The translations under genes and the position numbers were made by a program. The notes under the pieces were generated by a model. That model searched no databases. It had not been told where the DNA came from and saw nothing but the letters and a program-made list of their open reading frames with translations. This document shows, in pieces, positions 1-32,536 of a stretch of 32,536 bases of DNA; the first letter of the stretch is position 1; each line of letters opens with the position of its first letter. The DNA comes from Acidobacteriota bacterium (GTDB lineage: Bacteria > Acidobacteriota > UBA6911 > JACQSX01), in NCBI GenBank assembly GCA_036006905.1, contig DASYPF010000152.1:1-32536 (forward strand), in the 5' to 3' direction.

Positions 1-35
1 CCACTCCCCCACTCCCCCACTCCCCCACTCTCCCA
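1..35. repeat. Tandem octamer repeat (ACTCCCCC) x4, truncated by the window edge; the minus strand reads as G-tracts
   Basis: Direct reading gives cc-actccccc-actccccc-actccccc-actctccc. The complement is GGG-AGAGT-GGGGG-AGT-GGGGG-AGT-GGGGG. Confidence 0.9.
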
Positions 36-37
36 GC

Positions 38-57
38 GTTCGTGTCCATTTGCGGCC
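38..57. repeat. Right-end copy of the GGCCGCAAATG terminal inverted-repeat family; the left end presumably lies upstream of the window
   Basis: The reverse complement of gttcgtgtccatttgcggcc is ggccgcaaatggacacgaac. It resembles the termini at 29072 (ccgcaaatggacgctaacgaac) and 10431 (gccgcaaatgaaggcggatgaac). Confidence 0.6.
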
Positions 58-172
58 AAACAATCCTAAATCCGCAATATAATCGAACCCGAGTCCATCC
101 CGCGACACGGTGAGGGAATTCAATCGCGAGGGCCGGCTCAAGTGCAACGGAATTCTGAAGAGGTGCCGGACA

Positions 173-625
173 GTGAAATGTCCCTACTGTGAACATCTGG
201 AAGATCGCGTAGTCGATTCTCGTGAAAGCAAAGAAGGAGAGGTCATCCGCCGGCGGAGGGAATGCCTCGCCTGTGGGCGCCGTTTCACCAGTTACGAGCG
301 AATCGACGAGATTCCGTACATGGTGGTCAAGAAGGACGGCCGACGAGAGCGATTTGATCGCAACAAGGTGATGTCAGGGCTGCTCCACGCTTGCGAAAAA
401 CGCCCCGTGAGCACCGGACAACTGGAACAAATTGTAGACGAAATTGAGCAACACGTTCAGGACTCTCCCGACCGCGAGATTACCTCCGAAGAAGTGGGGA
501 AAACAGTAATGCTGAAGCTTCGGCAGTTGGATAAAGTTGCCTATGTCCGCTTCGCGTCGGTATACCTGGAATTTAAAGATGTCACCGAGTTCATGACCGA
601 AATTAATCACCTCTTTAAGAAATAG
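173..625 (+). CDS. nrdR: Transcriptional repressor NrdR (zinc ribbon plus ATP-cone)
   Basis: The sequence (V)KCPYCEH...DSRE...RRRRECLACGRRFTSYE has the CxxC...CxxC zinc ribbon followed by an ATP-cone (VVKKDGRRERFDRNKV...VAYVRFASVY). The family N-terminus corresponds to the GTG at 173, not the track start at 110. Confidence 0.9.
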   Translation: MKCPYCEHLEDRVVDSRESKEGEVIRRRRECLACGRRFTSYERIDEIPYMVVKKDGRRERFDRNKVMSGLLHACEKRPVSTGQLEQIVDEIEQHVQDSPDREITSEEVGKTVMLKLRQLDKVAYVRFASVYLEFKDVTEFMTEINHLFKK

Positions 626-655
626 GATGATAATTTTAGAAGCGGGCCAACCATC

Positions 656-3546: not shown

Positions 3547-3742
3547 AAAGCCGAGCACGCGCACGAGCACGTCAACGTCCACGACCACGACCACGTACGA
3601 TCACGTCTACGTTTGACGGCCGTATCCGTTGATAATTGTCGATTGCAGAGAGCTGAAGAGTGGCTGGAGATGATCTTTTCACGATCATGGACCTGGACGT
3701 GCTCGTTGACGTGCACGTGATCGTGGCTGTGAACGGCTTTTT
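3547..3742. repeat. Inverted pair of hexamer-periodic arrays, (CACGNN)n then (NNCGTG)n, around a ~80-bp unique centre
   Basis: The left arm at 3547-3607 is aaagccgagcacgcgcacgagcacgtcaacgtccacgaccacgaccacgtacgatcacgtc. The right arm at 3689-3742 is ggacctggacgtgctcgttgacgtgcacgtgatcgtggctgtgaacggcttttt. The arms are reverse-complementary, including the aaagccg/cggcttt ends. Confidence 0.85.
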
Positions 3743-4851: not shown

Positions 4852-5324
4852 GCTCTTACATCACCGGATTGCTGAAGAAGATTGTTTCAACCGACGAGAC
4901 ACCGAAACGGCTGGCGCTTTCTTTTACTATTGGCACATTCCTTAGCTTTTCGCCTCCGCTGGGAATCCACACGATCCTTGGTCTGTCGATCGCTTACCTG
5001 TTTCACCTGAATCGCACCGCCATGGTGGTCGGAGTTTACTTAAACAATCCCTGGACCATAGTCCCCTACTACGCCTTTGCCACCTGGGTGGGGATCAAGA
5101 TCACGGGTATGCCTGAGGGTGTGCAAATGCCGCATGTCGGCTTACGCGAAATCATGACGCGCGCCTTCTGGATGCAGATTATGGCAGAATGGAGAATTCT
5201 GATCCCGGCTGTCGTAGGTTCGCTGGTTCTGGCCCTGCTGATCGCGCTGGTCACCTATCCGATCATGCTGCATCTGATCGGGCGTTATCAAAAGCAACGG
5301 AGACTGCGGGCGCAGGTTGAGTAA
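4848..5324 (+). CDS. DUF2062-family small membrane protein
   Basis: 158 aa with a pattern typical of DUF2062: PKRLALSFTIGTFLSFSPPLGIHTILGLSIAYLFHLNRTAMVVGVYLNNPWTIVPYY, plus a C-terminal TM helix. It is translationally coupled to thiL. Confidence 0.6.
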   Translation: MSSYITGLLKKIVSTDETPKRLALSFTIGTFLSFSPPLGIHTILGLSIAYLFHLNRTAMVVGVYLNNPWTIVPYYAFATWVGIKITGMPEGVQMPHVGLREIMTRAFWMQIMAEWRILIPAVVGSLVLALLIALVTYPIMLHLIGRYQKQRRLRAQVE

Positions 5325-5326
5325 AG

Positions 5327-5623
5327 GGAATGCGGAATGGAAACGAATGCGGAATGACGAATGCGGAATGCCGAATGAAAAACCTGTTCCAGACCCTGGA
5401 GCACAGATGAAGGAGAACCCGTCGGCTCACAAGAGAGACTCGTTAAGCTCACCGTCCAGCCGGCCTTCATTCCGCATTCGGCATTCGCCATTCCGTATTC
5501 CCCTTCCGCATTCCCCAATTCATTCCGCATTTCCCATTCCGCATTCCCCATTCGGTTCATTCCGCATTCGCCATTCTGCACTCCACATTTGTTCCGCATT
5601 CCGCATTCCGCATTCCGCATTCG
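5327..5623. repeat. Asymmetric hairpin of heptamer arrays: (GGAATGC)~7, an 88-bp spacer, then (GCATTCC)~22
   Basis: The left arm at 5327-5377 reads ggaatgcggaatgg...gaatgcggaatgccgaatg. The right arm at 5466-5623 reads cattccgcattcggcattcgccattccg...ccgcattccgcattccgcattccgcattcg. The arms are reverse complements with a 7-nt period. Confidence 0.9.
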
Positions 5624-5625
5624 TT

Positions 5626-7119
5626 TTGATCCTGCTTCTGCTATGCACGCAAGTTTACGGCCAGGATCTGTCCGGAATCGTGAACATCAATTTCGTACCC
5701 GACGTGCGGCTCTTTATCGTCATGGCAGCTATTAACGCCGGCGGATTCAATTACGAGAGCGCGCCGTCCATGCATCCGGTGCGGTTGCAGGTACGGCAAA
5801 AGTTGAAGTTACTCGATCCGTTCCTGCTGCAGCGCCTTCATGATTTTTACATTGCCCATCACACAGTAGACAACCCGCAGCAGGAGATCGCGCGCTACAC
5901 CTCGCTGGCCTTGCTGCTCTCAGATCCGCCCCAATTGGAAATAAATTTGCCACCGAAAGATATTCCGCCCGAGGTTCACGACGTGCAGGGTTTTCAACAA
6001 ATTCTCCCCACCTTCTATCATCAGGCCGATTTGCAGCAGCTATGGGCTGAAGTGCGACCTCGGTATCTGGCCGAAATCGAACAATACAAGCCGGTCACGC
6101 GCCAGTCCATTGTCCAGGTCTTGCAGTATCTGCGTACCGAAGCGCGTATCGTCATGGACCGGCAAATCTTCTTTATCCCAGATTTGATGAGCGCTCATGG
6201 AGTCAGCAATTCGCGGATTGTCGGCAGCCTCTATTACCTGGTAGTCGGGCCGGCGGAGACCCCAGAGAAGAATCTGCGAAATATCCGCCACGAGTATCTA
6301 CACTTTTTGCTTGATCCGCTCATTGAGAAAAACGGCCTGGCAATCGTTCAGCAGCAGGAAGTGCTGCAACTGTTCAAAGATCGTCCCGAGCTGCTGGCAA
6401 AGTACCAAAAAGATCTCAAGCTTCTTAACACCGAATCTCTGATTGAAGCCATTCAACTTCGCATCGATCTGGTCAATCAAAATCGGCAGCGGCCCGTTTC
6501 TTCCGACAGCATTCGCGAGCAACTGGCACGGCACTACGACGCCGGGAACATTCTGGTTTATCACTACTACGAAAAGCTTCAGGATTTTGAGAGGGCTTCA
6601 GCCTCGTTTCCCGAATACCTGGCGGCGATTATTCAGTCGCTGGATATGAAACGCGAGCTGCAGCGCAAGGAGTGGTTTGTCGCTGAAGCCGAAAAACTAC
6701 GGCAGCAGCACGAAGTCCAATCGAAGCAATTGCAGGAGCGAATCGAGTGGGTGCGTCAACTGGAGCGTGCCAATGTTCTGTTGCAACAAAAAAACTTCGA
6801 TGAAGCGGAAAAAGTCTTGTTGCCAATGAAGGAGCGCCGGCCGGATGAACCGGCAGTGCTCTTCGGGTTGGGACAGATCCAGATACATCGTCAGAATGCG
6901 TCTGCCGCCGAGTCGTATTTCAACGCGGTGATCGCGCGGCCAGAAGCTCCGGCATGGATGGTAGCGTGGAGCCGCCTGAATCTTGCCTCAGTTTATCGGG
7001 CAACTGACCGCCTGGCGGAAGCGCGGGTGGCTCTGCAGCTTGTGGCGTCGTCCAACGAAGCCCTCCGGGGTGCCCGTGACGAAGCCAAAAAGCGGCTGGC
7101 GGACCTCCCGCCGCCTTGA
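5626..7119 (+). CDS. Secreted hypothetical protein with an HEXXH motif (putative zinc metallopeptidase-like) and a C-terminal TPR-like region
   Basis: The long ORF has coding-like composition from about 5630. HEYLH is encoded at 6289-6303. The C-terminus has TPR-like helices (NFDEAEKVLLPM...GLGQIQIHRQNASAAESYFNAVI...LASVYRATDRLAEARVAL). The track start at 5317 lies inside the heptamer arrays. I place the start at TTG 5626 (MILLLLCTQVYGQ, signal-like), but the start is uncertain. Confidence 0.55.
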   Translation: MILLLLCTQVYGQDLSGIVNINFVPDVRLFIVMAAINAGGFNYESAPSMHPVRLQVRQKLKLLDPFLLQRLHDFYIAHHTVDNPQQEIARYTSLALLLSDPPQLEINLPPKDIPPEVHDVQGFQQILPTFYHQADLQQLWAEVRPRYLAEIEQYKPVTRQSIVQVLQYLRTEARIVMDRQIFFIPDLMSAHGVSNSRIVGSLYYLVVGPAETPEKNLRNIRHEYLHFLLDPLIEKNGLAIVQQQEVLQLFKDRPELLAKYQKDLKLLNTESLIEAIQLRIDLVNQNRQRPVSSDSIREQLARHYDAGNILVYHYYEKLQDFERASASFPEYLAAIIQSLDMKRELQRKEWFVAEAEKLRQQHEVQSKQLQERIEWVRQLERANVLLQQKNFDEAEKVLLPMKERRPDEPAVLFGLGQIQIHRQNASAAESYFNAVIARPEAPAWMVAWSRLNLASVYRATDRLAEARVALQLVASSNEALRGARDEAKKRLADLPPP

Positions 7120-7129: not shown

Positions 7130-7295
7130 CCAACAAGAAAGAGTCGAAGGTCGCAGGTCGAAGGTCTAAAGTCATCCTGTTTTTTTGACCTTCGACTTTC
7201 GGCTCCAACAAGAAAGAGTCGAAGGTCGCAGGTCGAAGGTCTAAAGTCATCCTTTTTTTTTGACCTTCGACTTTCGACCTTCGACTTTCGACTCT
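7130..7295. repeat. Near-perfect 75-bp tandem duplication of a (GTCGAAG/GTCGCAG)n hairpin unit; the second copy ends in a T-run and may act as a terminator
   Basis: The units start at 7130 and 7205. Their first 48 nt are identical: ccaacaagaaagagtcgaaggtcgcaggtcgaaggtctaaagtcatcc. Each is followed by T7-9 and gaccttcgactttcg. Copy 2 extends to gaccttcgactttcgactctcgcttttt. Confidence 0.9.
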
Positions 7296-7510
7296 CGCTT
7301 TTTATTTGCAACCCTTCGGTTGCCGGAGTCTCATAAGGGAGTAGTAGAAATTTTTTTGCTTCGAGCAGGTGGATTTGGATTAAGATATTTTCTTTTTCCC
7401 GACGGATACTGTGCAATTCTGATATCTCCATCTCCTGCTTGTCAGCTTGGCAGAATGGCTCTTGCATCCGTTTGAGAAGGCAAAAAACTGTGTCTACGGA
7501 GGACATTTAA

Positions 7511-9470: not shown

Positions 9471-9689
9471 AGTCGCAGGTCGCAGGTCGAAAGTCGCAAG
9501 TCAACCATCAATTTCCAGGTTCAAGGTTCCGGGTTTCAGGTTCAAGGTTTCGGGTCCAAGGTTCCGGGTTTCGAGTTTTCAAGTTCCAAGTTCAGGGCTA
9601 CGAATCTCGAGGTTTTGAGTTTCTGGAACCCGGAACCTTGAACCCGGAACCTTGAACCCTTTGACCTTTGACTTGCGACCTTCGACTTG
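9471..9689. repeat. Nested two-family palindrome: outer (GTCGCAG/GTCGAAA)n arms enclose inner (GGTTCAA/GGTTCCG/GGTTTCG)n arms
   Basis: The outer arms are 9471-9505 (agtcgcaggtcgcaggtcgaaagtcgcaagtca) and 9657-9689 (ccctttgacctttgacttgcgaccttcgacttg). The inner arms are 9517-9595 and 9617-9658 (ggaacccggaaccttgaacccggaaccttgaaccc). It fills the gap between the convergent genes rnc and CPBP. Confidence 0.9.
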
Positions 9690-10713: not shown

Positions 10714-10742
10714 TTGCAAAGCGATGTCGTTCAGAATAAAAA
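10714..10742 (+). promoter_or_regulatory. Possible sigma70-type promoter for the acidic protein gene
   Basis: TTGCAA at 10714-10719, a 17-nt spacer, then TAAAAA at 10737-10742. It lies about 48 nt upstream of the ATG. This is a sequence match only. Confidence 0.25.
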
Positions 10743-10789
10743 GGGAGTACCTTGATGTCATTACTACTGAATATGGGCAGGGAGGAATA

Positions 10790-11125
10790 ATGGAGAACAT
10801 TGAGCGCCAGACTCTCGAGTCGTCTTTTCTTTTTGGCGGAGATGGTCGACCGATGTGCCAAAAGATGTCGCCGCGCCGCAAAGAGGATGAAGGACTGGAA
10901 GACGAAGATTCCGACGATGTGGATGATTTGGACGAGAACGATCTGGACGAAGAAGAAGATTTTGAGGACGAAGACTTCGAAGACGACAGCCTGGATGACT
11001 ATGAGAAAGATGACCTCGATGACTACGATGATGACGATGAAGATGAATTTGATGACGACCTGGATGACTACGAAGATGAAGATGAGGAGGATTTCCTGGA
11101 TGACGAGGACGAAGAAGAATATTGA
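10790..11125 (+). CDS. Small poly-acidic protein (111 aa) with an 80-aa C-terminal tail of ~74% D/E punctuated by F/Y/L
   Basis: AGGGAGGA at 10778-10785 lies 4 nt before ATG 10790. Synonymous alternation (GAT/GAC, GAA/GAG) supports the D/E frame. The sequence is MENIERQTLESSFLFGGDGRPMCQKMSPRRK + EDEGLEDEDSDDVDDLDENDLDEEEDFEDEDFEDDSLDDYEKDDLDDYDDDDEDEFDDDLDDYEDEDEEDFLDDEDEEEY. Low-complexity DNA keeps other frames open, so coding status is not certain. Confidence 0.55.
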   Translation: MENIERQTLESSFLFGGDGRPMCQKMSPRRKEDEGLEDEDSDDVDDLDENDLDEEEDFEDEDFEDDSLDDYEKDDLDDYDDDDEDEFDDDLDDYEDEDEEDFLDDEDEEEY

Positions 11126-14059: not shown

Positions 14060-14070
14060 GCTCGATGCTC

Positions 14071-14098
14071 GTAGAGACGCGGTATACCGCGTCTCTAC
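14071..14098. terminator. Perfect 12-bp palindrome (TAGAGACGC family) 3' of the envelope protein gene
   Basis: The sequence is gtagagacgcgg-tata-ccgcgtctctac, 12 nt after the stop codon. No T-tract follows, so terminator function is uncertain. Confidence 0.4.
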
Positions 14099-14166
14099 CA
14101 AGGCGTAGGCCGGTCACGCCCCGTAAAGGCCGACGCTTTGACCGGGTGTCGGAGAATTGATGTTAG

Positions 14167-14196
14167 GGAAGAGCCGCGATTTATGCGGCTCTTTCC
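14167..14196. repeat. Short palindromic element
   Basis: The sequence is ggaagagccgc-gatttat-gcggctctttcc, an 11-12 bp stem with one bulge. Confidence 0.6.
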
Positions 14197-14230
14197 TTTA
14201 GTGGCCGTCCTGGGCAGCTTCGCCGCGCTA

Positions 14231-14356
14231 AGCCCCGCACTAAGAATCTGTGAAAAAATCCGAGCCGCGACCGTTAGGGAGCGGACCCTCCGACGAGAGT
14301 CCGCTTGCTTACGCGCGCGGCTCAGTATTTTTTCACACGTTCTAAGGTGCGGGCCT
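14231..14356. repeat. ~125-bp palindromic element carrying the conserved core GAGCCGCGACCGTTAGGGAGCGG
   Basis: The left arm is agccccgcactaagaatctgtgaaaaaatccgagccgcg. The right arm is cgcgcggctcagtattttttcacacgttctaaggtgcgggcct. An inner agcggac...gtccgct stem is present. The core also occurs at 26367-26389, 27775-27797 and 27906-27928. Confidence 0.8.
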
Positions 14357-14374
14357 GGGCTTTAGACATCTTCG

Positions 14375-14667: not shown

Positions 14668-14781
14668 GCGGGGAAGCCGAGCAGAGACCGGTATTTGTAC
14701 TACAAGTGAACCGGCTCACCTTTTCTGGTCTCGACAACTGATAACTCTGGTGGCTGAATGATAGCCATTTGAACAGAGCCC

Positions 14782-14810: not shown

Positions 14811-14837
14811 GAGTAGCAGGAGGTTTTCCGGGGCCGT

Positions 14838-16883: not shown

Positions 16884-16888
16884 TAACA

Positions 16889-17092: not shown

Positions 17093-17103
17093 ATTTCACT
17101 GCC

Positions 17104-17824: not shown

Positions 17825-17829
17825 GGACC

Positions 17830-18324
17830 TCACTTCACTTCAAACAACAACTGCCCGGTGTTGACGGGCTGGCCTTCTTTAACTGCAATTTGTGCCAGGA
17901 CCCCACGACATGGGGAACGAATCTCGTTTTGCATTTTCATCGCTTCAATGAGCAGAACTGCTGTATTTTTCTCCAAAGCGTCTCCGATCGATTTCAAAAG
18001 CTTGACCACGCGTCCAGGCATCTGCGCCTTGATTGATTGCACTCCCTTCGGCGTGTCGCTTTCGGCTGCCAGCTGGAGCCTCTGGTCCAATAATTCCATC
18101 AAATAGGTTTTGCCGGAGAGGATCACCGTGTACTGGTTCGCCTGCCGATGAACCACCGCATCCACGATTCTTCCATTCCTGCTGATGAGACAATGCGATC
18201 CGCTGAGCTTTTGAAACTCCAGGCTCACCGGCTGGCCGTCCAGTAGAATTTCAGTTTCACCTCGGCCGCCGGAAAACTCAACGATGTGGGCATCGCCATT
18301 GGCAAGTCGCGCAACCAGCTTCAC
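17830..18324 (-). CDS. Biotin carboxyl carrier protein subunit of acyl-CoA carboxylase
   Basis: The C-terminal biotinyl domain has the EAMKM motif (VLLIEAMKMQNEIRSPCRGVLAQIAVKEGQPV). The GTG start overlaps the accC stop (GTGA). Confidence 0.85.
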   Translation of the reverse strand: MKLVARLANGDAHIVEFSGGRGETEILLDGQPVSLEFQKLSGSHCLISRNGRIVDAVVHRQANQYTVILSGKTYLMELLDQRLQLAAESDTPKGVQSIKAQMPGRVVKLLKSIGDALEKNTAVLLIEAMKMQNEIRSPCRGVLAQIAVKEGQPVNTGQLLFEVK

Positions 18325-19796: not shown

Positions 19797-19807
19797 GGAC
19801 TTATTCT

Positions 19808-20097
19808 AATTGCGGATTTCAGATTTCGGATTGCGGATTGTTTTGATTTCGGATTGTGGATTTCGGATTGCGGATTGCAGCATCCGTGGTGAGTTGTCCG
19901 TTGTTGGTGAAGGCAGCATGAGTTCGGCCTGCTTCCACTCTTGCCCAACTGCATCCACTCATTTTCATAAAATCGGCAATGAAACTAAGCTTTTTCCAGC
20001 AACGGACAACTGACAACGGACGCCCAAAATCCGCAATCCGCAATCTGCAATCCGAAATTGAAACAATCCGCAATCCGAAATCCGCAATCCGCAATTG
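19808..20097. repeat. Nested (GCGGATT)n/(AATCCGC)n hairpin lying between pccB and accC on the same strand
   Basis: The left arm spans 19808-19880 and the right arm 20027-20097. The inner arms are gttgtccgttgttgg (near 19893) and caacggacaactgacaacggac (20000-20021). The 20-mer ggacaactgacaacggacgc at 20004-20023 is the exact reverse complement of 16962-16981. Confidence 0.9.
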
Positions 20098-20098
20098 A

Positions 20099-21649
20099 TT
20101 ACAGCGGTATATTGCCGTGTTTGCGGGGCGGATTCTTGTCGCGCTTGTTGGCGGCCATTTCCAGGGCCCGAATTAATTTGAGGCGTGTTTGACGTGGATG
20201 GATCACCTCATCGATGTAGCCGCGCTCGCTGGCAATGTAAGGTGACGCAAATTTGTCGCGGAACTCTTCGATTTTCTGCCGGCGGAAATCTTCCGGATTC
20301 GAAGCGCGCTCCAGTTCGGAGCGATACAGGATATTGACGGCGCCTTCCGGTCCCATCACAGCAATTTCGGCGGTAGGATAGGCATAATTCATGTCAGTGC
20401 GAATATGCTTCGAGGCCATCACACAATAGGCTCCCCCGTACGCCTTGCGCGCAATGACTGTGATCTTAGGGACGGTGGCCTCTGCAAAAGCGTAAAGCAG
20501 CTTGGCGCCGTGCTTAATGATCCCTCCGTATTCCTGATTCACACCGGGCAGAAATCCGGGCACGTCTTCAAACACTATTAGCGGAATGTTGAATGCATCG
20601 CAGAAACGGACAAATCTGGCGGCCTTTACCGAGGCCCCGATGTCCAGTGTGCCCGCCAGCACCGACGGCTGATTGGCGACAATACCGACGGACCGTCCGT
20701 TCAAACGCGCAAAACCCACAATCATGTTTTGCGCGTATGCTTCTTGTACCTCAAGGAATCGATGGTCGTCGACTACGGCCCTCAGCAGTTGCTTCATGTC
20801 GTAGGGAAGATTGGGATCGACAGGAATCAATTGGTCCAACTCGGGATTCTCGCGCTCCGCCGAGTCGGAATTTTCGTAACAGGGTGGATCCTCCATGTTG
20901 TTGAGGGGAAGATAGGAAAAAAGTTCACGGATCATGGCAAGACAACTGCGATCGTCCGACGCCGCAAAATGAGCAACTCCGCTTAGTTCGTTGTGCGTCG
21001 AAGCTCCGCCCAGCTCCTCCTTGGTGACGTTTTCATGCGTGACCGCCTTGATCACATCCGGGCCAGTGATAAACATGTAGCTGGTCTTTTCCACCATGAA
21101 GATGAAATCGGTGATCGCGGGGCTGTAGACCGCTCCTCCCGCACATGGCCCCATGATGGCCGAGATCTGCGGCACCACTCCCGAGGCAAGCGTGTTGCGC
21201 AGAAAAATATCCGCATAACCGCCTAAGCTGATTACTCCTTCTTGAATCCGCGCCCCCCCGGAATCATTGAGACCGACGACAGGGCCGCCCATCTTGATGG
21301 CCAGATCCATAATCTTGCAGATTTTTTGGGCGTAGGTCTCGCTCAGGCTGCCACCGAAGACTGTGAAGTCCTGGGCAAACGCAAAAACCAGGCGGCCATC
21401 AATCTTTCCATATCCGGTAACGACTCCGTCGCCAGGGATCTTCTGATTCTCCATGCCGAAGTCACTGCAGCGGTGGATGACAAACTTGTCCACTTCATTG
21501 AAGCTCCCTTCATCGAACAGGAAGTCGATTCGCTCGCGCGCCGTCATCTTGCCGGCGCTATGCTGGCGCTGCAGACGCGCCTCGCCGCCTCCCAGTTCCG
21601 CAGCGCGATTGCGCTTCTCTAACTCTTCGAGCTTGCTTTTCAGGTCCAT
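20099..21649 (-). CDS. pccB: Acyl-CoA carboxylase carboxyltransferase subunit (propionyl-CoA carboxylase beta / methylmalonyl-CoA carboxyltransferase family)
   Basis: 516 aa from ATG 21649 ([14 protein letters not shown]...[22 protein letters not shown]). The family hallmarks DFTVFGGSL and AYGGAY are present. The track start at 21688 extends into the repeat. Confidence 0.95.
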
Positions 21650-21651
21650 GG

Positions 21652-21970
21652 TTCGATTGCGGATTGTCTTGATTGCGGATTGTCTCAATTGCGGATTGTC
21701 TCAATTGCGGATTGCGGATTGCGGATTGCCGGATTTCGGATTGAATCCATTGCGGATTGCGGATTGCGGATTGGTAACCACGAAGGCACCAAGTCACAAA
21801 CCGTACCTTTCCTGGTGTCATTGTGCCTTCGTAGTGCACTTATAACGAAACTGTCTAAGAAACTCTCTATGGAGTCAATCCGCAATTCGAAATCCGCAAT
21901 CCGCAATGGAGCCAATCCGCAATCCGAAATCCGCAATTGAGACAATCCGCAATTGAAACAATCCACAATC
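21652..21970. repeat. (GCGGATT)n/(AATCCGC)n hairpin with a unique centre that contains its own small hairpin
   Basis: The left arm at 21652-21773 includes attgcggattgtctcaattgcggattgtctcaattgcggattgcggattgcgg. The centre hairpin is acgaaggcac...gtgccttcgt. The right arm spans 21875-21970. The element begins 2 nt from the pccB ATG. Confidence 0.9.
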
Positions 21971-22756: not shown

Positions 22757-23821
22757 CTACTGAAAATCTACCCGCATAGTTTCCGAAGGGGCGCTCTCGT
22801 TTCCCTTAAGATCAACGGCGGTCACGCGGTAGTAATAAGTGCCTTTGGCCGGTGGCACATCCGGGAAACTGTTTACTACCACCAGCATTCCGGTTATTTT
22901 CTGAAAGGCGCTTTCGCTTGCGCCTCTATAGACATTGTACCCCTGTAAGTCCATTTCGGAGTTAGGTTCCCACGCCAATTCGATTCGTCCGCCAGAAACG
23001 ACGGCCCCCAGGCCTTTTGGGGTCGACGGGGGAAATACATCTGTGGTGGTCACCGAAACTGTGGCGGACATGGGTCCAAAGGCGGGCGGGGCTTGCGCGG
23101 AGCGGGTCTGGACAGCGTAAAAGTAGGTCTGATCAGGAACTGCCGCAGCATCCCGGTACTGGCGCACGTCTCCCTCGATGTCGCTGATCTTTTCCAGGGT
23201 CGTTTGGGTGCTTCCTCGGAATACGCGGTAGCCGATGACGCGCGGCGGCACCGAGCCATCCAGGTTCCGCTGCGGGGCTGCCCAACGCAGGATCACCGCC
23301 TGCTCGGTGACCTCGGGAGGTCGCAGTGCCGGAGCCAAGGCCGGTGCAATGGGAGAGATAAAAACGATATTTGACAATTGTGAAGCAACCTTACGCGGGC
23401 TGTAGAACCGCACAGCATAGAAGAAACTGCGTTGGAAAAGGAGCATTGGGTCCTGAAACGCCACGACATCTTCATACCGATAACGGTTGTCTTTCAAAAT
23501 CTTCTTCAGATCGTCAGGCCACAATTTGGCGATGATTTGACCGCCCTGTTCGAGCCGACCGGAGGCGGCCGGAGGCGGCTGGTCGGATCGAGGAAGAGCC
23601 AGGCGGTAAATGGCAACCGTTCCCAATTGCAGTGGCTTACCATCAGCATAGGTTGCGGGAAGTGAGAAATCCAAAAGGATGTGGTTTTCTTGCTGTTCCA
23701 GGCGCAAATCGCCGATGGTGGACGGCGGGATCAAGTAGGGAGGCTGAGGATCGGCAATTTTGGCGCAAGACAAAACTGTGATCGCGCAAATCAGGAGTAA
23801 CGGTCGCAGGTCGCAAGTCAT
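22757..23821 (-). CDS. Lipoprotein with fibronectin type III-like domains
   Basis: The lipobox is MTCDLRPLLLICAITVLSC. The Fn3-like repeats include RPPEVTEQAVILRWAAP...VIGYRVFRG and GRIELAWEPNSEMDLQGYNVYRG...YYYRVTAVDLKGNES. The first ~6 codons are encoded by GTCGCAG-type heptamers. Confidence 0.7.
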   Translation of the reverse strand: MTCDLRPLLLICAITVLSCAKIADPQPPYLIPPSTIGDLRLEQQENHILLDFSLPATYADGKPLQLGTVAIYRLALPRSDQPPPAASGRLEQGGQIIAKLWPDDLKKILKDNRYRYEDVVAFQDPMLLFQRSFFYAVRFYSPRKVASQLSNIVFISPIAPALAPALRPPEVTEQAVILRWAAPQRNLDGSVPPRVIGYRVFRGSTQTTLEKISDIEGDVRQYRDAAAVPDQTYFYAVQTRSAQAPPAFGPMSATVSVTTTDVFPPSTPKGLGAVVSGGRIELAWEPNSEMDLQGYNVYRGASESAFQKITGMLVVVNSFPDVPPAKGTYYYRVTAVDLKGNESAPSETMRVDFQ

Positions 23822-24178
23822 CAGTCATCAGTCATCGGTCATCAGTCATCAGTCATCGGTCATCGGTCATCAGTCATCGGTTATCGGTCATCGGTCATCG
23901 GTCATCGGTCATCGGTTATCGGTCATCGGTTATCGGTCATCGGTTATCGGTCATCGGTCATCGGTCATCGGTCATCGGTCATCGGTCAATGACCCATCAG
24001 TGACACACCTACAAATTTTCAGGTCCACAGGCATCAGGTCTAGCTTGGCTAGAAGTCATAAGTCGGTAGTATCTGGCTGGCTGACCTGTTGACGCGCCGA
24101 CGTGTGATTGATGATCGCTGACCGATGCCGGGTACCGAATGACTGTTGACCGATGACCGATGACTGATGACCGATGAC
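23817..24178. repeat. (TCATCGG/TCATCAG)~26 array, ~110-bp centre, degenerate (CCGATGA/CTGATGA)~10 array
   Basis: The left arm spans 23817-23998 and is 182 bp of almost uninterrupted heptamers. The right arm spans 24108-24178 and ends ...gaccgatgaccgatgactgatgaccgatgac. The element lies between hslU and the Fn3 lipoprotein gene on the same strand. Confidence 0.92.
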
Positions 24179-26194: not shown

Positions 26195-26334
26195 TAAAGT
26201 TTCCTTAACTCTGGTCTCTTGATTCAGGACACTAGCAGCACATATCCAAAGAGCGAAACATCAAGTATAGCGAAATGGCGCGCGGCAGTCAGCTACCATG
26301 GATGCGCAGCGTAGCGAAGCCGCAACCAAAGGCC

Positions 26335-26523
26335 GCTGGCGTAGTCGCAAAGTGTCACATCGGCGCGCCGCTCCCTTCCGGTCGCGGCTCTGTGGGCGCC
26401 GATTTCAGCGCTGCCGCACACTGACCCGAATGGCGTGCGAGTATTCTTCATCTGCTCTCTCTACGTTGGGCGTTTTCGTTGACCTGCGCGTGCTCGTGAT
26501 CGTCGACGCAGTCGTTTTAGCTG
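26335..26523 (+). repeat. Copy A of a ~190-bp dispersed repeat: conserved core plus a (GTGCTC/GTGATC) hexamer tail
   Basis: It aligns almost base for base with the reverse complement of 27531-27833. The shared segment is gcaaagtgt.acatcggcgcgccgctccct.ccggtcgcggctctgtggg..c...ttca.cgctgcc.cacactg.cccgaat..cgtgcgagtatt.ttcatc, ending in gttgac.tgc.cgtgctcgtg. It lies in the divergent hslV/truA promoter region. Confidence 0.85.
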
Positions 26524-26619
26524 CCATAAATCTTGCTAGAAAATCAAGAAATTGCCATGCTACGCAGAGGCGACGGGGGCGTCTGCGACATGGCCGCGTC
26601 TGCGCAGAAACTGGATCCA

Positions 26620-27465
26620 ATGATTCGGTGTCTCAAATTAACTTTGGAGTACGACGGAACGCGCTATCACGGCTGGCAAAGTCAAAAGAACAGCCGCACC
26701 GTCCAAGATGCGTTGACCGCCAGTGCCCGCGACGTTCTGAATACAGCAGTCGAGGTAGGAGGCGCGGGCCGAACCGACGCTGGGGTTCATGCGCTTGCCC
26801 AGGTCGCGCACCTAAAGTTTCGAGTTTTGGGTTCCCAGTTTCGTGTTGTGGCCCGCACCAGCAGAACTCCAGCAACTCGAAATCTTAAACCCGAAACACG
26901 AGACTTGAAGCTGCTGCGTGATCAACTCAATAAGACGCTTCCCTCAGACATTGCTGTGCTTGAGGTCGAAGAGGCAGATGCCGGCTTTCACGCCCGCCAT
27001 GACGCTGTTTGCCGCTATTACCTCTATCAGGTGGCCAGCCGAAAGACGGCCTTTTCCAAAAGATTTGCCTGGTGGGTCAAGGAGCCTCTCGACGTAGCAG
27101 CGATCCAAGAAGCGGTGAAACTGCTTTTGGGCCGGCACGACTTTGCGGCCTTCGGAGAGAAACGAGGTGAGAAGAAATCTACTGTCGTTGAAGTGTACGA
27201 GTGCTCGCTCAGTGTGGCTGGAGAGCTAATTCTGATCCGGATCGGGGCTTCTCACTTCCTGTGGAAAATGGTGCGCCGTCTGATCGGTTCGCTGGTGGAG
27301 ATCGGGCGCGGCAACTTGAATCCGGAAGTTTTTGAGCGGATGTTAACAAAGCAGCAGAGTTCGGCCGCTGCCTGGACCGCGCCTGCCTCCGGCTTGTTTC
27401 TGGAGAAGGTCACCTATTCGGACGGCGATCTCCCTGGGGAGTTACGTCCGGTGCTGTGGGTTTGA
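26620..27465 (+). CDS. truA: tRNA pseudouridine(38-40) synthase TruA, carrying a ~22-aa in-frame insertion
   Basis: The sequence has MIRCLKLTLEYDGTRYHGWQSQ, the catalytic Asp in GAGRTDAGVHA, FHARHDAVCRYYLY and GASHFLWKMVRRLIGSL. The start is set at ATG 26620 by family alignment. ATG 26590 or 26557 are possible. Confidence 0.9.
   Translation: MIRCLKLTLEYDGTRYHGWQSQKNSRTVQDALTASARDVLNTAVEVGGAGRTDAGVHALAQVAHLKFRVLGSQFRVVARTSRTPATRNLKPETRDLKLLRDQLNKTLPSDIAVLEVEEADAGFHARHDAVCRYYLYQVASRKTAFSKRFAWWVKEPLDVAAIQEAVKLLLGRHDFAAFGEKRGEKKSTVVEVYECSLSVAGELILIRIGASHFLWKMVRRLIGSLVEIGRGNLNPEVFERMLTKQQSSAAAWTAPASGLFLEKVTYSDGDLPGELRPVLWV
26815..26908. repeat. Heptamer-periodic palindrome (GTTTCGA/GTTTTGG/GTTCCCA/GTTTCGT ... 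complement) embedded in frame within truA
   Basis: The left arm is aagtttcgagttttgggttcccagtttcgtgttg and the reverse complement of the right arm is aagtctcgtgtttcgggtttaagatttcgagttg, giving 25 of 34 matches. The encoded peptide is KFRVLGSQFRVVARTSRTPATRNLKPETRDLK. Confidence 0.8.
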
Positions 27466-27530
27466 TCGTCCAGATTGATTCACAGATCTTCACCGGAGGC
27501 ACACCCCGGCGGAGCCGCAACCAAGAATAG

Positions 27531-27986
27531 AAAACCGATCACGTCCACGAGCACGTGCACGTCAACGACCACGCCCACGGATACGGGAGCATAGACGGTG
27601 ACCTTTGATACTGGAGCGTCCCGCCCATAGGGTACTGCACTTTTTTTGTCAGCGTCGACGTGGCTGAGTTGCCAGATTGTGAAATTTGGTTTTTTCAACC
27701 AGTTTTTACCACGGAGATGAAAAATACTCGCACGAAATTCGGGGCAGTGTGGCAGCGTTGAAGTGGGCACCCACAGAGCCGCGACCGGGAGGGAGCGGCG
27801 CGCCGATGTAACACTTTGCCACTACACCAGCGCAGAGTTGCTGCAACAATGATGCGGGCGGTCCGATTTTGCCGAACGTGATTGCGATGACTCACTCTGG
27901 CGCGCCGCTCCCTTCCGGTCGCGGCTCTGTGGGTGCCGTCACCAAGCCGGCAGCCGTATGCTCGTGGACGTGGCCGGTTTTAGCTG
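27531..27986. repeat. Composite palindrome formed by copy B (27531-27833, minus orientation, with a ~110-bp internal insertion) and truncated copy C (27899-27986, plus orientation) of the ~190-bp repeat
   Basis: The core arms are gcacccacagagccgcgaccgggagggagcggcgcgcc (27768-27805) and ggcgcgccgctcccttccggtcgcggctctgtgggtgc (27899-27936), about 38 bp with 1-2 mismatches. The outer arms are cacgtccacgagcacgtgcacgtcaacgaccacg (27540-27573) and gctcgtggacgtgg (27960-27973). The element lies between truA and glpX. Confidence 0.8.
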
Positions 27987-29071: not shown

Positions 29072-29250
29072 CCGCAAATGGACGCTAACGAACGCACAAA
29101 TGTTCACCGCAGAGGCGCAGAGAGCGCAGAGATAGCACAGAGAATAGGGCTGAAGCATACTTTAAACTTCAGCCCTTCTCTGCGTCATCTCTGCGGTTCT
29201 CTGCGCCTCTGCGGTGAACATTGTGCGTTCATTCGCGTTTATTTGCGGCC
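29072..29250. repeat. Long hairpin with ~85-bp arms: GGCCGCAAAT-type termini enclose (GCGCAGA/CGCAGAG)n arrays
   Basis: The left arm is ccgcaaatggacgctaacgaacgcacaaatgttcaccgcagaggcgcagagagcgcagagatagcacagagaatagggctgaag. The reverse complement of the right arm is ggccgcaaataaacgcgaatgaacgcacaatgttcaccgcagaggcgcagagaaccgcagagatgacgcagagaagggctgaag. The element lies between the convergent genes glpX and thrC. Confidence 0.9.
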
Positions 29251-29272: not shown

Positions 29273-30442
29273 TCATTCGACATTGAGTACCACTTCCTGA
29301 TACTTCAATCCCGACCCGGTGTTGAAGATTACAATCGATTGGTCCGGCTTCAACCAACCTTCCCGGCTCAACCTTCTCAAACCTGCGATCGCCGCGGCGC
29401 TCTCAGGGCAAAGAAACACACCCTCTACTTTGCCCATTTCGAATATCTCGCGGCGGATGTCGGAGTCTTCAACGGCAACGGCTGTGCCCTCACTTTCGCG
29501 CAGAATCTTGAGCATGATGAAGTCGCCGATGGCTCTGGGCACGCGTAGGCCGCTGGCAATTGTGTGCGCGTTCTGCCACGGATCTGCCTCGTCTTTACCT
29601 TCCCGAAACGCTTTAACGATGGGAGCGCAGCCAGCCGCTTGCACCGAGACCATGCGCGGACGCTTCGACCCGATCCATCCCAGCTCTTGCATTTCGTGGA
29701 ATGCTTTCCACATCCCGATAAGTCCAGTGCCGCCACCGGTGGGATAAGCGATCACGTCGGGAACGCCCCAGTCGAACTGTTCGGATAGCTCGTATCCCAT
29801 GGTTTTCTTGCCCTCAATTCGGTAAGGTTCCTTCAAGGTGGATACGTCGTACCAATCGTCCTGACGCGCCTGGTTCATTCGTTTGGCTGCATCGGTAATC
29901 AAGCCATCAACCAGCTCCACATGAGCTCCATAGACTTTCGCCTCCACAATGTTGGCCGCCGGAGTGTCTTTGGGCATAAAGATAAAAGCTTGCAATCCGG
30001 CGCGGGCTGCATACGCTGCGAGCGCACCCCCGGCATTCCCCGCACTGGGAATCGACAGCTTAGTCACGCCCAACGCCCGCGCCATGCTTACCGCGGCAGA
30101 AAGTCCGCGCGCCTTGAAGGAGCCGGTCGGATTGAAGCTTTCGTCCTTTAAGAAGAGCTTGGTAAGCCCAAGTTCCTTCCCCAGAGCGCGGAGCGCAATC
30201 AGCGGCGTGCCCCCTTCGCCCAGCGAGACCACTTCCGCCTGTGAGTCGACTGGCATTGTTTCGATGTAGCGCCACATGTTCCAGGGACGGTCTCCCAGCT
30301 CCGTCTTTGTTACGCTTCGTTTCACATTCCGCAAGTTGTATCGAACCAGGAGCGGCGCGCCGCATTCGCACACGTGTACCACAGTTCGCGGAGGATACCG
30401 CTTTAAGCAGCGCGAGCACTCCAGGTGCGTTACCTGGCTCAT
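29273..30442 (-). CDS. thrC: Threonine synthase (short form with an N-terminal zinc-ribbon-like Cys cluster)
   Basis: The PLP-lysine motif is FNPTGSFKARG and the glycine loop is TGGGTG. The N-terminus has CSRC...CECG. The ATG overlaps the nadB stop by 4 nt. Confidence 0.9.
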   Translation of the reverse strand: MSQVTHLECSRCLKRYPPRTVVHVCECGAPLLVRYNLRNVKRSVTKTELGDRPWNMWRYIETMPVDSQAEVVSLGEGGTPLIALRALGKELGLTKLFLKDESFNPTGSFKARGLSAAVSMARALGVTKLSIPSAGNAGGALAAYAARAGLQAFIFMPKDTPAANIVEAKVYGAHVELVDGLITDAAKRMNQARQDDWYDVSTLKEPYRIEGKKTMGYELSEQFDWGVPDVIAYPTGGGTGLIGMWKAFHEMQELGWIGSKRPRMVSVQAAGCAPIVKAFREGKDEADPWQNAHTIASGLRVPRAIGDFIMLKILRESEGTAVAVEDSDIRREIFEMGKVEGVFLCPESAAAIAGLRRLSREGWLKPDQSIVIFNTGSGLKYQEVVLNVE

Positions 30443-32034
30443 AGTCTCTCCTTTACCGGCAACGTCGCCACCTCGATATATTTACAATCTTTCGACTTCA
30501 AAATGATTCTTTTTCTCCAGCGCACATCGTCTCTCGCGGGAAAGTCCGTGCGAAAGTGCGCACCGCGGCTTTCCTGGCGCGCCAGCGCCGCCGACGCGAT
30601 CAAATAAGCCAACGTGCTCATGTTGTTGGTCTCGGCACTCAGGCGGTCGGCAGCGTCGAAACGGGCAGCCAGCCGCGAAACAGTAAATTGCAGATCCGTC
30701 GCGTTTCGTTCGATACCCACTCGAGCAGTCATCATATCGCGAATGTCATCTCGGCTCGGAATGGACGAAGGCGGAAGCTCCAGTCGAGCTTCTTGGAATG
30801 TAACGGGCCCTTCGAAGATCTTCCTTTGCCCCATGGCATCGGCGGCGCGGGCTCCGAACACCAGGCCCTCGAGCAGGGAATTGCTTGCCAGCCGATTGGC
30901 TCCATGTACGCCGGTGCACGCCGCCTCTCCAGCGGCAAACAGGTTCTTCAACGTGCAGGCGCCATTCAGATCCGTCCGCAGTCCCCCCATCATATAATGC
31001 GCTGCCGGTTGCACAGGAATTGGATCGCGCGCCAGGTTAAGGCCATATCGCAGGCAGGTGTGGTAGATCGTCGGAAACCGAGTCTTGAGGAATTCCGAAT
31101 CCAGGTGTGTCATGTCCAGGTAAACCGGCTGTCCCGTCTTGCGCATTTCTGCAAAAATTCCACGGCTGACGACATCGCGAGGCGCCAGTTCCTTTCGCAC
31201 GTGATAGCGCTCCATGAATCGTTCGCCGGCCTGGTTGCGCAGCACGCCGCCTTCTCCCCGGAGCGCTTCGGTTAAAAGGAACCGTGGAGCGCCAGCCAGC
31301 GCCAGGGCAGTGGGATGAAACTGAAAAAACTCCAGGTCCACGAGCTCAGCTCCTGCCCGGAAGCCCATCGCGGGGCCATCGCCGGTCGCGATGTCAGGAT
31401 TGGTTGTGTCGCGGAAGATCTGTCCAGCACCGCCCGTGCAGATCAAAACGGCGCGACTTTCCACTTCATCGATGCTTCTGGTGCGCTCAGAAACGAACCT
31501 TACGCCGCGACATTCGTTCTGCCGTATGATCAAATCCAGCGCGAAAGTGTGGTCCATCAGGGTAAGGTTTCCAGCGCTCTTCAATGTCTGCAGCAGGGAA
31601 CGGATGATTTCCTTTCCGGTCGAGTCGCCGCGCGCATGCAGAACCCGGTGCCGGCTATGAGCCGCTTCTTGAGTAAACGAAAGCTGGGACCCATCCCTAT
31701 CAAAATTGGTTCCCCAGTCGATCAGTTCCTGAATGCGCTCTGGACCCTCTTCGACCAGCACATGCACCGCTTCCGGCTCACACAGCCCGTCGCCTGCCTG
31801 GATGGTGTCGTCAAAATGGAGCCAGATGTCATCCTCATCGCTCATCGCCACGGCCACGCCACCCTGCGCATACTCGGTGTTCGACTCGTCGGGCTTTGAT
31901 TTAGTAATGATTGCAACTGAGCCGCGCTTGCTCAAGTCGATGGCGGCGCGCAGGCCTGCAACGCCACTGCCGATGATGACAAAGTCGAATTTCTGCACGC
32001 GGAAGAATATATAACTCTTTCGGCCAGCGGTCAC
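30439..32034 (-). CDS. nadB: L-aspartate oxidase
   Basis: The FAD-binding motif is DFVIIGSGVAGLRAA. Other hallmarks are RHRVLHA, FHPT, GGLRTD, GVHGANRLASNSLLE and ESRGAHFR. The start is GTG 32034 or GTG 31998. Confidence 0.93.
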   Translation of the reverse strand: MTAGRKSYIFFRVQKFDFVIIGSGVAGLRAAIDLSKRGSVAIITKSKPDESNTEYAQGGVAVAMSDEDDIWLHFDDTIQAGDGLCEPEAVHVLVEEGPERIQELIDWGTNFDRDGSQLSFTQEAAHSRHRVLHARGDSTGKEIIRSLLQTLKSAGNLTLMDHTFALDLIIRQNECRGVRFVSERTRSIDEVESRAVLICTGGAGQIFRDTTNPDIATGDGPAMGFRAGAELVDLEFFQFHPTALALAGAPRFLLTEALRGEGGVLRNQAGERFMERYHVRKELAPRDVVSRGIFAEMRKTGQPVYLDMTHLDSEFLKTRFPTIYHTCLRYGLNLARDPIPVQPAAHYMMGGLRTDLNGACTLKNLFAAGEAACTGVHGANRLASNSLLEGLVFGARAADAMGQRKIFEGPVTFQEARLELPPSSIPSRDDIRDMMTARVGIERNATDLQFTVSRLAARFDAADRLSAETNNMSTLAYLIASAALARQESRGAHFRTDFPARDDVRWRKRIILKSKDCKYIEVATLPVKERL

Positions 32035-32036
32035 TC

Positions 32037-32338
32037 ATCAGGTCGGCAAGTCACGGATCAGTAAGTCACAGGTCACGGGTCAGGAAGTCAAAGGTCACAG
32101 GTCGCGGGTCAGGAAGTCCAAGGTCACAGGTCACGGGTCAGGAAGTCCAAGGTCACAGGTCAACAGGTCACAGGTCAGCAGCCATCAGGCCTGCTACCTG
32201 CTAACCAACCTGTAACCTGTGACCTTCTAGCTTGTTGACCTGTAACCCGTGACCTATGACCTGTGACTTCCTGACCTGTGACCTGTGACTTCCTGACCTT
32301 ATCACTTGCTGACCCGTGACTTGCTGACTTGTTGACCC
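32037..32338. repeat. Hairpin of (GGTCACA/GGTCACG/GGTCAGG/AAGTCAA)n and complementary (TGTGACC/CCTGACC)n arrays
   Basis: The left arm spans 32037-32180, the centre near 32181-32200 reads gccatcaggcctgctacctg, and the right arm spans 32201-32338. The element begins 3 nt from the nadB start. Confidence 0.9.
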
Positions 32339-32390
32339 TTGTAGGCGTTCTCGAAACAGATGAAACCTCAAAGCTTCTGTCGTCGTAAAC

Positions 32391-32536
32391 ATGACTGATG
32401 ACTGATGACTGATGACTGATGACTGATGACTGATGACTGATGACTGATGACTGATGACTGATGACTGATGACTGATGACTGATGACTGATGACCAATGAC
32501 CGATGACCGATGACCGATGACCGATGACCGATGACC
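32391..32536. repeat. Perfect tandem array (ATGACTG)x14 followed by ATGACCA and (ATGACCG)x5+, running off the window
   Basis: Direct reading shows 98 bp of uninterrupted ATGACTG, then a switch to ATGACCG. It belongs to the same family as the 3' arm at 24108-24178. Confidence 0.95.

Follow-up and report, generated by a model that had tools for sequence, protein, structure and literature searches.

The window analysed here, the whole 32,536-nt stretch of contig DASYPF010000152.1 (GCA_036006905.1) from an uncultured soil Acidobacteriota, contains nine loci at which a tandem array of 7-nt units is followed by a centre of 12-150 nt and then by the reverse complement of the array. As far as sequence comparison goes, these hairpins are shown to be extragenic palindromes built from simple-sequence repeats that lie at gene 3' ends and between cistrons, and to be part of the chromosome, passed on vertically within an uncultured Acidobacteriota lineage. 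For the transcript of either strand, the predicted fold is a very stable imperfect hairpin whose arms measure roughly 50-170 nt. As for their role, we judge the chances to be about even that they act much like repetitive extragenic palindromes (REPs) and bacterial interspersed mosaic elements (BIMEs), as RNA stem-loops that would protect upstream 3' ends, as double-stranded processing substrates and, at most, as attenuators of read-through.

A preliminary description of this DNA had reported the nine loci, with units of the GGTCNNN, GGTTCNN and GGWWTGC types. Tandem Repeats Finder (TRF) and direct reading of each locus reproduced all of them within a few bases, and the consensus units agree: GGAATGC (at 5327), GGTCGAA/GGTCGCA (7130 and 9471), GGTTCAA-type (9513), GGATTGC (16889, 17589, 19809 and 21653), GGTCATC (23817) and GGTCACA (32050). 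An extra inner family, GTCCGTT, is found at 16963-17043 and 19885-20021, and at least eight unit families are present in this lineage. The nine loci are the following.

5327-5625, plus strand: GGAATGC hairpin in the tandem gap between the DUF2062 and TPR genes; 5' arm 5327-5377, centre 5378-5467, 3' arm (GCATTCC) 5468-5625.
7130-7301: small GGTCGAA/GGTCGCA hairpin in two 75-nt copies, tandem and 98% identical, starting 10 nt past a stop codon; the duplication spans 7130-7276, and an extended 3' arm (TTCGACC, 7258-7301) is followed by a T-run.
9471-9689: nested hairpin in the convergent gap between rnc and the CAAX protease gene; outer pair GGTCGCA 9471-9502 and GCGACC 9658-9689, inner pair GGTTCAA-type 9513-9593 and GAACC 9625-9659; fold z = -9.2.
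16889-17092: nested hairpin, 5 nt past the BNR stop codon and 11 nt ahead of the next start; outer pair GGATTGC 16889-16957 and GCAATCC 17046-17092, inner pair GTCCGTT 16963-16990 and AACGGAC 17019-17043.
17589-17823: GGATTGC hairpin in the convergent gap between a hypothetical gene and the BCCP gene; arms 17589-17679 and 17756-17823.
19808-20098, minus strand: nested hairpin, GGATTGC outside (69-nt arms, 90% complementary) and GTCCGTT inside, occupying the entire gap from the carboxyltransferase stop codon to the accC start codon; z = -13.8.
21652-21970, minus strand: GGATTGC hairpin with a 16-nt compound period (CAATTGCGGATTGTCT) in the gap between tal and the carboxyltransferase gene; arms 21653-21773 and 21876-21969.
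23817-24178, minus strand: GGTCATC hairpin in the hslU-fn3 gap; 24.6 near-perfect units (23817-23988) against GATGACC (24110-24178); its GC skew is about 0, and its orientation is still that of the relatives.
32037-32338: GGTCACA hairpin beginning 3 nt from the nadB start codon; arms 32050-32177 and 32208-32332, with a 22/29-nt higher-order period mirrored in both; z = -14.7.

The arms can differ widely in length (51 versus 158 nt; 172 versus 69 nt). Taken together with near-perfect one-sided expansions (24.6 units at 23817-23988; 20.7 units at 32391-32535), this points to ongoing slippage, as had been proposed from the sequence. The two arms of a hairpin are not independent slippage products, because interruptions and higher-order periods are mirrored between them: at 19808-20098 GGATTGTTTTGATTTCGG faces CCGAAATTGAAACAATCC, and at 32050-32332 the 22/29-nt period recurs across the centre. 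The four GGATTGC loci follow a common arm plan, in which a YAATTGCGG start leads into about four units, after which GGATTGTYYYRATTKCGG, an interruption similar to the arm start, precedes about four further units; their centres are unrelated and vary in length. Nested composites are frequent, and their inner and outer layers are alike in polarity.

The z-scores given above, computed against dinucleotide shuffles, refer to the predicted RNA folds of three hairpins. Across the array-bearing gaps the fold energy is mostly -0.43 to -0.55 kcal/nt, with two gaps at about -0.35, compared with -0.23 to -0.31 for the shuffles, so that the array gaps exceed the shuffles in stability by up to about two-fold. 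TRF finds 27 period-7 arrays in the window; the long ones are all intergenic, and the intragenic ones amount to two 20-nt traces. Per 100 kb, period-7 arrays cover 5741 bp (5.7%) in the window, 2839 bp in three related loci and 123 bp in 1.3 Mb of control loci from other lineages, which puts the window at about 47 times the controls. The controls are the products of a carboxyltransferase query in a genome collection, which returned distant lineages only (64-74% identity); these were unfit for orthologous comparison and were reused. A search of the whole window against Rfam 15 gave no match at gathering score, and a literature search with the exact array sequences returned nothing relevant.

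An assembly artefact, a danger raised in the preliminary description, is ruled out by a second assembly. An independent Joint Genome Institute metagenome contig (L081) corresponds to window positions 12172-21829 at 99.92% identity and includes five array loci with no indels and one single-nucleotide difference in an arm; the same kind of agreement between assemblies is seen for L083 and L084. We also rejected phase-variable contingency repeats, given the lack of indels in five arrays between the two assemblies, the housekeeping neighbours and the 3'-end location. L081 terminates inside an array hairpin (window position 21829), the window end at 32536 also lies inside an array, and gene callers place open reading frames (ORFs) across arrays, with starts at 5317 and 16903 and with "genes" of 78 and 91 aa in L081. 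In practice, metagenome assemblies break at these arrays, and genes are called over them that are spurious or too long. The TPR-gene ORF at 5317-7119 is open (5317-5760) through the whole hairpin of about 300 nt, it has no homology to the L083 ortholog before residue 115, where the signal peptide ends, and the hairpin centre has an in-frame ATG (5407) after GGAG. Judging from this arrangement, the 3' arm of the 5327 hairpin could be translated as a long cleavable N-terminal extension. The open frame is not significant, however: the arrays are generally poor in stop codons, and the depletion is statistically unconvincing.

The gene content is that of an ordinary chromosome. A Pfam scan identified nrdR, hsp20, lon, an AIR-synthase-like gene, DUF2062, two TPR genes, rnc, genes for a CAAX protease, a PKD protein, a BNR/sortilin protein and BCCP, accC, a carboxyltransferase gene, tal, hslUV, truA, glpX, a gene for a PLP enzyme and nadB; the genes that flank arrays are housekeeping genes. 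As far as the evidence goes, the presence of rnc, mentioned earlier in connection with RNase III processing, is coincidental.

Heptamer hairpins occupy 9 of the 17 window gaps of at least 100 bp, the threshold for all gap comparisons, which falls short of the "nearly every intergenic gap" first claimed; the remaining gaps hold mostly other palindromes, and two divergent gaps hold none. When the window is pooled with the syntenic loci of three related genomes (L082, L083 and L085), the share of gaps with arrays is 16 of 31 for tandem, 4 of 6 for convergent and 0 of 5 for divergent ones (one-sided hypergeometric P ~0.03 for the absence from the last class), and the divergent gaps fold no better than shuffles. 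A hairpin starts 0-22 nt past the upstream stop codon and often ends 0-30 nt from the next start codon, and in tandem gaps it lies nearer to the upstream stop than to the downstream start in 8 of 11 cases. Promoters in the hairpin centres were rejected, as a sigma-70 scan found none there and its totals equal the shuffle expectation. Nor do the arrays belong to the class of intrinsic terminators with a short GC-rich stem and a U-tract: the window has 26 hairpin-plus-U sites (shuffles 23.0 +/- 5.3), these do not coincide with arrays, and a T-run follows only the locus that ends at 7301.

The comparison with relatives that had been suggested at the outset bears out the hairpins as an inherited trait. 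The best homologs of the window's BNR protein are 70%, 67% and 52-55% identical to it, and their sources, where named, are "Acidobacteriota bacterium" or "Acidobacteria bacterium"; three such genomes supplied the syntenic loci. The same gaps carry hairpins in these genomes (BNR ortholog 70%, 67% and 52% identical), often with other unit families. Outer arms are often common, as with the "...ctattctaATTGCGGATT" beside accC in all three genomes, and the gap between the BNR gene and the hypothetical gene holds GGATTGC or GGAATGC in the window, L082 and L083. The inner arrays vary, being GTCCGTT in the window and GTCATC in L082 and L083, where GTCATC arrays lie inside GGATTGC or GGAATGC arms in several gaps. 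The carboxyltransferase-tal and hypothetical gene-BCCP gaps always hold a long hairpin of unrelated sequence, which in L083 is a non-repeat palindrome. The TPR-TPR gap has an element of about 170 nt in the window only, placed between the stop codon and a promoter/5' untranslated region block that is conserved in L083; it is absent from the orthologous gap of L083 and L085. Shared outer arms, differing inner arrays and hairpins in the same gaps speak for vertical inheritance with turnover or addition at the centre and occasional gain or loss of whole elements. To judge by these alignments, they indicate that the presence of a hairpin at a given site persists in the long term while its sequence is replaced. 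Array-level compensatory change (GGATTGC/GCAATCC versus GGAATGC/GCATTCC) was considered and is not claimed: it is seen between the window and L082 at the BNR-hypothetical gene gap and is contradicted by other arms in L082 and L083, whose types are mismatched.

The same arm comes first throughout. All nine outer pairs and all three nested inner pairs of the window have the G-rich arm on the 5' side, as do all 13 pairs in the relatives; for complete heptamer hairpins in this lineage (window and three related genomes) the count is 22 of 22 pairs G-first. The preliminary description was right that the polarity is real and strand-symmetric, and also that it is limited to complete heptamer hairpins, since the hexamer arrays at 3552-3718 are reversed and the array at 32391-32536 has no partner in the window. 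The GGTCATC family keeps its orientation in five of five loci at a GC skew of about 0, and polarity is therefore a matter of the sequence family and not of base composition alone. The nine window loci are not nine independent trials, as they fall into two or three superfamilies (GGTC-type, GGWWTGC, GTCCGTT).

What did not hold is the generality of the rule. In the control loci, a G-rich or GGTC-type arm leads in every clear inverted pair of heptamers or octamers (L006, L010, L024, L069 and L080, from Acidobacteriaceae, Bryobacterales and Anaerolineae; the call for L010 is by unit rotation, not GC skew). Among the matches listed from a set of at least 120 metagenome loci with (GGATTKC)4, 62 heptamer pairs are G-first and 19 C-first; by family, the ratio of G-first to C-first is 23:0 for GGATTGC and 10:12 for GGATTTC; and all 13 contigs with at least two pairs are internally uniform where shuffles predict 5.6 mixed ones (P ~1e-4), a count that leaves out one call in which the arms of two neighbouring hairpins had been joined. 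One C-first contig, L201, is a Verrucomicrobiota nuo operon. In L206, also from Verrucomicrobiota, the A/C-rich arm comes first in five of five hairpins, at nuoD-E, E-F, I-J, J-K and K-L, and L208, whose NuoF is 88% identical to that of its relative L206, has the same polarity at nuoD-E and nuoI-J. Polarity is fixed within a lineage or family and differs between lineages; because the Verrucomicrobiota locus and the window hexamers are reversed, no universal physical constraint is at work. Most simply, a repeat superfamily would hand down its orientation while its two arms evolve together. The roughly 3:1 excess of G-first pairs, seen over contigs and families, hints at a general bias in addition.

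Three other explanations of polarity drew no positive answer. Selection on one transcript strand was examined through sense and antisense fold energies (G.U versus A.C asymmetry), and the sense fold was the more stable in only 9 of 15 tandem gaps. A single ancestor for all unit families with preserved polarity is not apparent from the units (cyclic Hamming distance 3.21 in the same and 3.54 in the reversed orientation, equalled by 13% of assignments). Avoidance of Rho, under which a C-rich arm would never be exposed first and C-first elements should have the shorter first arms, is not reflected in the first arms, with medians of 33 nt for G-first and 36 nt for C-first hairpins (P = 0.50) among the matches listed, and is also countered by the C-first hairpins inside the nuo operon.

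Two sets of arrays outside the lineage have features of their own. In L206, at 18300-19850, 8-nt arrays of GCGTCTTG and ACGCAAAG alternate about five times with a spacing of about 222 nt; the stretch lies between nuoL and the next antiporter-type subunit gene, across two inserted small non-nuo ORFs (one PDDEXK_3), and looks like a tandem cluster of hairpin elements. L116 (3244-3462) and L153 (738-954), from other organisms with 62-64% GC, have in common a C-first (GAAATCC)n...(GGATTTC)n hairpin with a conserved centre of about 90 nt (gcattggctctg.actcaat.ctgaggccacaggc), which on this resemblance is best described as a putative dispersed or conserved element with a defined core.

Our data suggest a model in which stem-loops in 3' untranslated regions or between cistrons would block 3' exonucleases, while their stems would serve double-strand-specific RNases as substrate. 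Such an element would be a leaky terminator at most, and neighbouring genes would be uncoupled in mRNA stability. Strong termination is unlikely in any case, because the hairpins fill the carboxyltransferase-accC gap and sit inside the Verrucomicrobiota nuo operon. The arrays would be generated and maintained by replication slippage within each arm, new arrays would be added or inserted at the hairpin centre, and the fixed polarity would be a heritable property of the repeat superfamilies of the lineage, possibly reinforced by the general G-first bias.

Several observations weigh against this model. The absence from divergent gaps is based on just five gaps, with a one-sided P of ~0.03. Sense folds are the more stable in 9 of 15 tandem gaps; this lack of a strand-specific signal means that there is no signature of selection on a particular transcript. 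The genes directly after hairpins have no Shine-Dalgarno motif, and a hairpin that forms next to their start codons could hinder translation. The arms do not always co-vary: in L082 and L083, GGATTGC on the 5' side faces GCATTCC on the 3' side. Some arrays are unpaired (window 32391-32536; L083 18822-18932), arms may be very unequal, and among the matches listed for the metagenome loci 69 of 126 scored GGATTKC arrays lack a partner even with at least 250 bp of sequence on either flank. Unpaired arrays and very unequal arms imply that pairing is not strictly required, and the pattern is equally compatible with neutral accumulation wherever hairpins are tolerated.

That the arrays accumulate as neutral or selfish by-products with no function is possible but less likely. 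Arrays born by slippage would turn palindromic, persist downstream of genes and be purged from divergent gaps, which contain promoters. The excess of heptanucleotides among the long simple-sequence repeats of many prokaryotes (Mrazek 2007, cited in both PMC4679880 and PMC4692102) would fit this, as would the one-sided expansions, unequal arms and unpaired arrays, the lack of sense/antisense fold asymmetry, and the TPR-TPR element that is present in the window and absent in relatives. It is harder to reconcile with hairpins that are kept gap by gap at 52-70% protein identity, even after full replacement of their sequence, and with arm complementarity kept over the same range, which needs selection or active homogenisation from arm to arm.

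That the hairpins are non-autonomous mobile elements, similar to REP doublets (REPINs) or MITEs (transposable elements of miniature size with inverted repeats), seems unlikely to us. A transposase encoded elsewhere would insert them into hairpin centres, and its strand recognition would set the polarity. The common arm plan of the four GGATTGC loci, with an interruption (GGATTGTYYYRATTKCGG) that resembles an element boundary, is what such copying might leave behind, and so are the common nested composites of different families, the GTCATC arrays within older GGATTGC/GGAATGC arms in several gaps of L082 and L083, the whole-element indel and the 98%-identical 75-nt duplication at 7130-7276. The window also has GTAG-tagged, REP-like palindromes (see below), which suggest a possible REP-associated tyrosine transposase in the genome. 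However, a Pfam scan of 27 window ORFs found no transposase, the copies have no conserved centre and vary widely in length, and the TPR-TPR insertion has no visible target-site duplication. Outer arms that are orthologous between species, moreover, speak for inheritance in situ and not for recent insertion.

We think it improbable that a dedicated trans-acting factor with a 7-nt register writes or maintains the hairpins as operon "punctuation", fixes which arm comes first in each lineage (G/T-first in Acidobacteriota, A/C-first in Verrucomicrobiota) and controls mRNA processing and read-through genome-wide. Candidates would be a single-strand binder of the cold-shock-domain type, a domain that covers about 7 nt, or an enzyme of the HUH or reverse-transcriptase type that targets hairpins and inserts units in their centre. 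We give still less credence to a role at the level of DNA, with the arrays either bound by a protein of 7-bp register or forming cruciforms that would shape supercoiling or nucleoid organisation. Binding of gyrase or IHF has been proposed at BIMEs, and the strict 7-nt register across many unit sequences, the convergent head-to-head layout typical of oriented protein-binding arrays and the symmetry on both strands whatever the gene direction would suit such a role. A single sequence-specific binder is hard to square with units that differ greatly by locus, and by species at the same gap; the analysis identified no candidate for such a protein; and spacers of 30-150 nt disfavour the extrusion of cruciforms from duplex DNA. 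G-quadruplexes (G4), proposed for the G-rich heptamers of Xanthomonas and Nostoc, are scarcely credible and were rejected as a general explanation: most 5'-arm units begin with GG, L085 has GGCGGGA/GGCAGGA arrays and the Xanthomonas repeats form G4 in vitro (PMC4692102), but a G3 tract is required where the units here have GG at most, the longest and most perfect arrays (AGTCATC/GGTCATC, GATGACT) have isolated Gs only, and the complementary arm would out-compete a G4.

Beside the nine heptamer hairpins, the window has five further repeat loci.

1-90: C-rich 8-mer array (CCACTCCC, 4.4 copies, at 1-35) and units resembling GCAATCC, at the edge of the window and upstream of nrdR; the window start probably truncates a hairpin here, leaving its 3' half.
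3552-3718: inverted hexamer (CACGWC) arrays after lon, C-rich arm first.
27530-27975: second hexamer locus, not listed in the preliminary description, C-rich arm first; the CACGWC array at 27530-27580 pairs with 27955-27975.
29100-29215: hairpin built from 9/11-mer repeats (GCAGAGAG), G-rich arm first, in the gap where glpX and the PLP-enzyme gene converge; strong, at -0.66 kcal/nt.
32391-32536: near-perfect (GATGACT/GATGACC)x20.7 array that runs into the window end, unpaired within the window.

The hairpin at 29100-29215 shows that the design of an array plus its mirror image extends beyond 7-nt units.

Palindromes without tandem units also occur. A GTAG...CTAC palindrome, GTAGAGACGCGGTATACCGCGTCTCTAC, lies directly after the stop codon of the PKD gene (14071-14098), and a second, within 14388-14652, is an inverted repeat with 47-nt arms (14388-14434 and 14606-14652) that are 94% complementary and include GTAGCCCCGGG; similar GTAG-type palindromes are found in L083 (16647-17047) and L085 (9845-9893). 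By their resemblance to known tags, they suggest that the lineage may also carry classical REPs and perhaps a REP-associated tyrosine transposase. Another dispersed family, with the motif GAGCCGCGACCG..AGGGAGCGG, is present at 14250-14338 and at 27768-27804 and 27900-27937; the latter palindrome (27768-27937) has near-perfect arms of 37 nt and is enclosed by the reversed hexamer arms of 27530-27975, to which it is unrelated. Among the genes, the long ORFs 26298-26888 and 26533-27465 overlap in different frames upstream of and across truA, and only the second has a Pfam match, in its C-terminal part; there may be a mis-called start or a frameshift in truA. The interval between the CAAX protease and PKD genes holds a small, very acidic low-complexity ORF with GAC/GAA-rich repeats and no Pfam match, both in the window (10724-11125) and in L083 (6750-7091) and L085 (4268-4681).

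Among known systems, the preliminary description had named the short tandemly repeated repetitive (STRR) sequences of cyanobacteria and REP/BIME as partial precedents. This much stands, as both match only in part, but it missed a closer one, and inverted heptamer arrays of fixed polarity are accordingly not a novel kind of element. The GGGAATC repeats of Xanthomonas campestris and X. axonopodis form about 185 arrays per genome, of which about 90% are intergenic (Rehm 2015, PMC4692102). They stand roughly 28 nt behind the upstream stop codon and about 160 nt away from the following ORF, mostly where genes are co-oriented or convergent and in only 7-8% of cases where they are divergent. Each genome has 70-75 pairs "in convergent orientation", the two arrays lying on opposite strands. 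At orthologous genes the length of an array is not kept from one species to another, and the arrays are transcribed, with transcript starts and stops more frequent in them than in controls (PMC4692102). The hairpins described here are likewise intergenic 7-nt arrays in convergent pairs, G-first, close to stop codons and rare in divergent gaps. Xanthomonas differs in having essentially one unit, with a G3 tract that makes it G4-capable, and usually about four units per array, whereas the units here (GGTCGCA, GGATTGC, AGTCATC and others) have GG or a single G, belong to at least eight families, form nested composites and arms of up to 170 nt and make up about 5.7% of the DNA, and hairpin positions are kept over much deeper divergence and in another phylum.

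The REP, BIME and REPIN elements of Proteobacteria (for example Bertels and Rainey 2011, PMC3116915) are also extragenic, avoid promoter-only gaps, lie at 3' ends and between cistrons, and as inverted doublets form long hairpins with a fixed internal orientation, a likeness seen here in the folds and the polarity. Protection of mRNA 3' ends and partial termination have been proposed as their roles. REPs differ in being conserved imperfect palindromes of 20-40 nt, often with GTAG or CGTC tags, that are copied by a REP-associated tyrosine transposase, whereas our arms are tandem heptamers of variable length and several families. We know of no REP-associated tyrosine transposase that acts on arms made of tandem 7-nt arrays. 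MITEs have terminal inverted repeats, a target-site duplication and copies of uniform length and sequence; here the four GGATTGC loci have a common arm plan but unlike centres and lengths, and no target-site duplication is evident at the TPR-TPR site.

The STRR sequences of heterocystous cyanobacteria and the GGGGAYT repeats of Nostoc are mainly intergenic tandem heptanucleotide arrays as well, but they belong to another phylum and have other units (CCCCAGT, TTGGTCA, CAACAGT; GGGGAYT), and most of them stand alone as direct arrays, Nostoc having "only a few paired repeats" (PMC4692102); by unit and by Acidobacteriota host, the present arrays are not STRR members. The TAACTGA repeats of marine Beggiatoaceae and cyanobacteria are intergenic, abut start codons and were proposed to act post-transcriptionally (MacGregor 2015, PMC4679880), but they consist of 2-6 directly repeated copies, take their orientation from the downstream gene, include a single inverted case in 170 and are not hairpins. 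Geobacter metallireducens has four or five tandem heptanucleotide repeats at dozens of sites, of which the predicted global-regulator classes are mostly paired (Aklujkar 2009, PMC2700814); these are short and uniform, are read as regulator sites or regulatory RNAs, and do not fill gaps, nest or form long hairpins. In many prokaryotes, according to Mrazek 2007 as cited in PMC4679880 and PMC4692102, heptanucleotides are the most over-represented long simple-sequence repeats. Set against all these systems, the type of element, though poorly understood, is already known from Xanthomonas, and what stands out here is its extreme density, its nested multi-family organisation and a polarity that is uniform within a lineage and opposite between phyla. 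To our knowledge, heptanucleotide repeats have no accepted function or origin. The lineage is an extreme natural case that offers many orthologous loci for asking whether such repeats are selected structure or self-maintaining junk, and a polarity that is uniform within a contig or lineage and opposite between phyla lets one study what sets it, be it descent, a lineage-specific enzyme or a transcription-linked bias.

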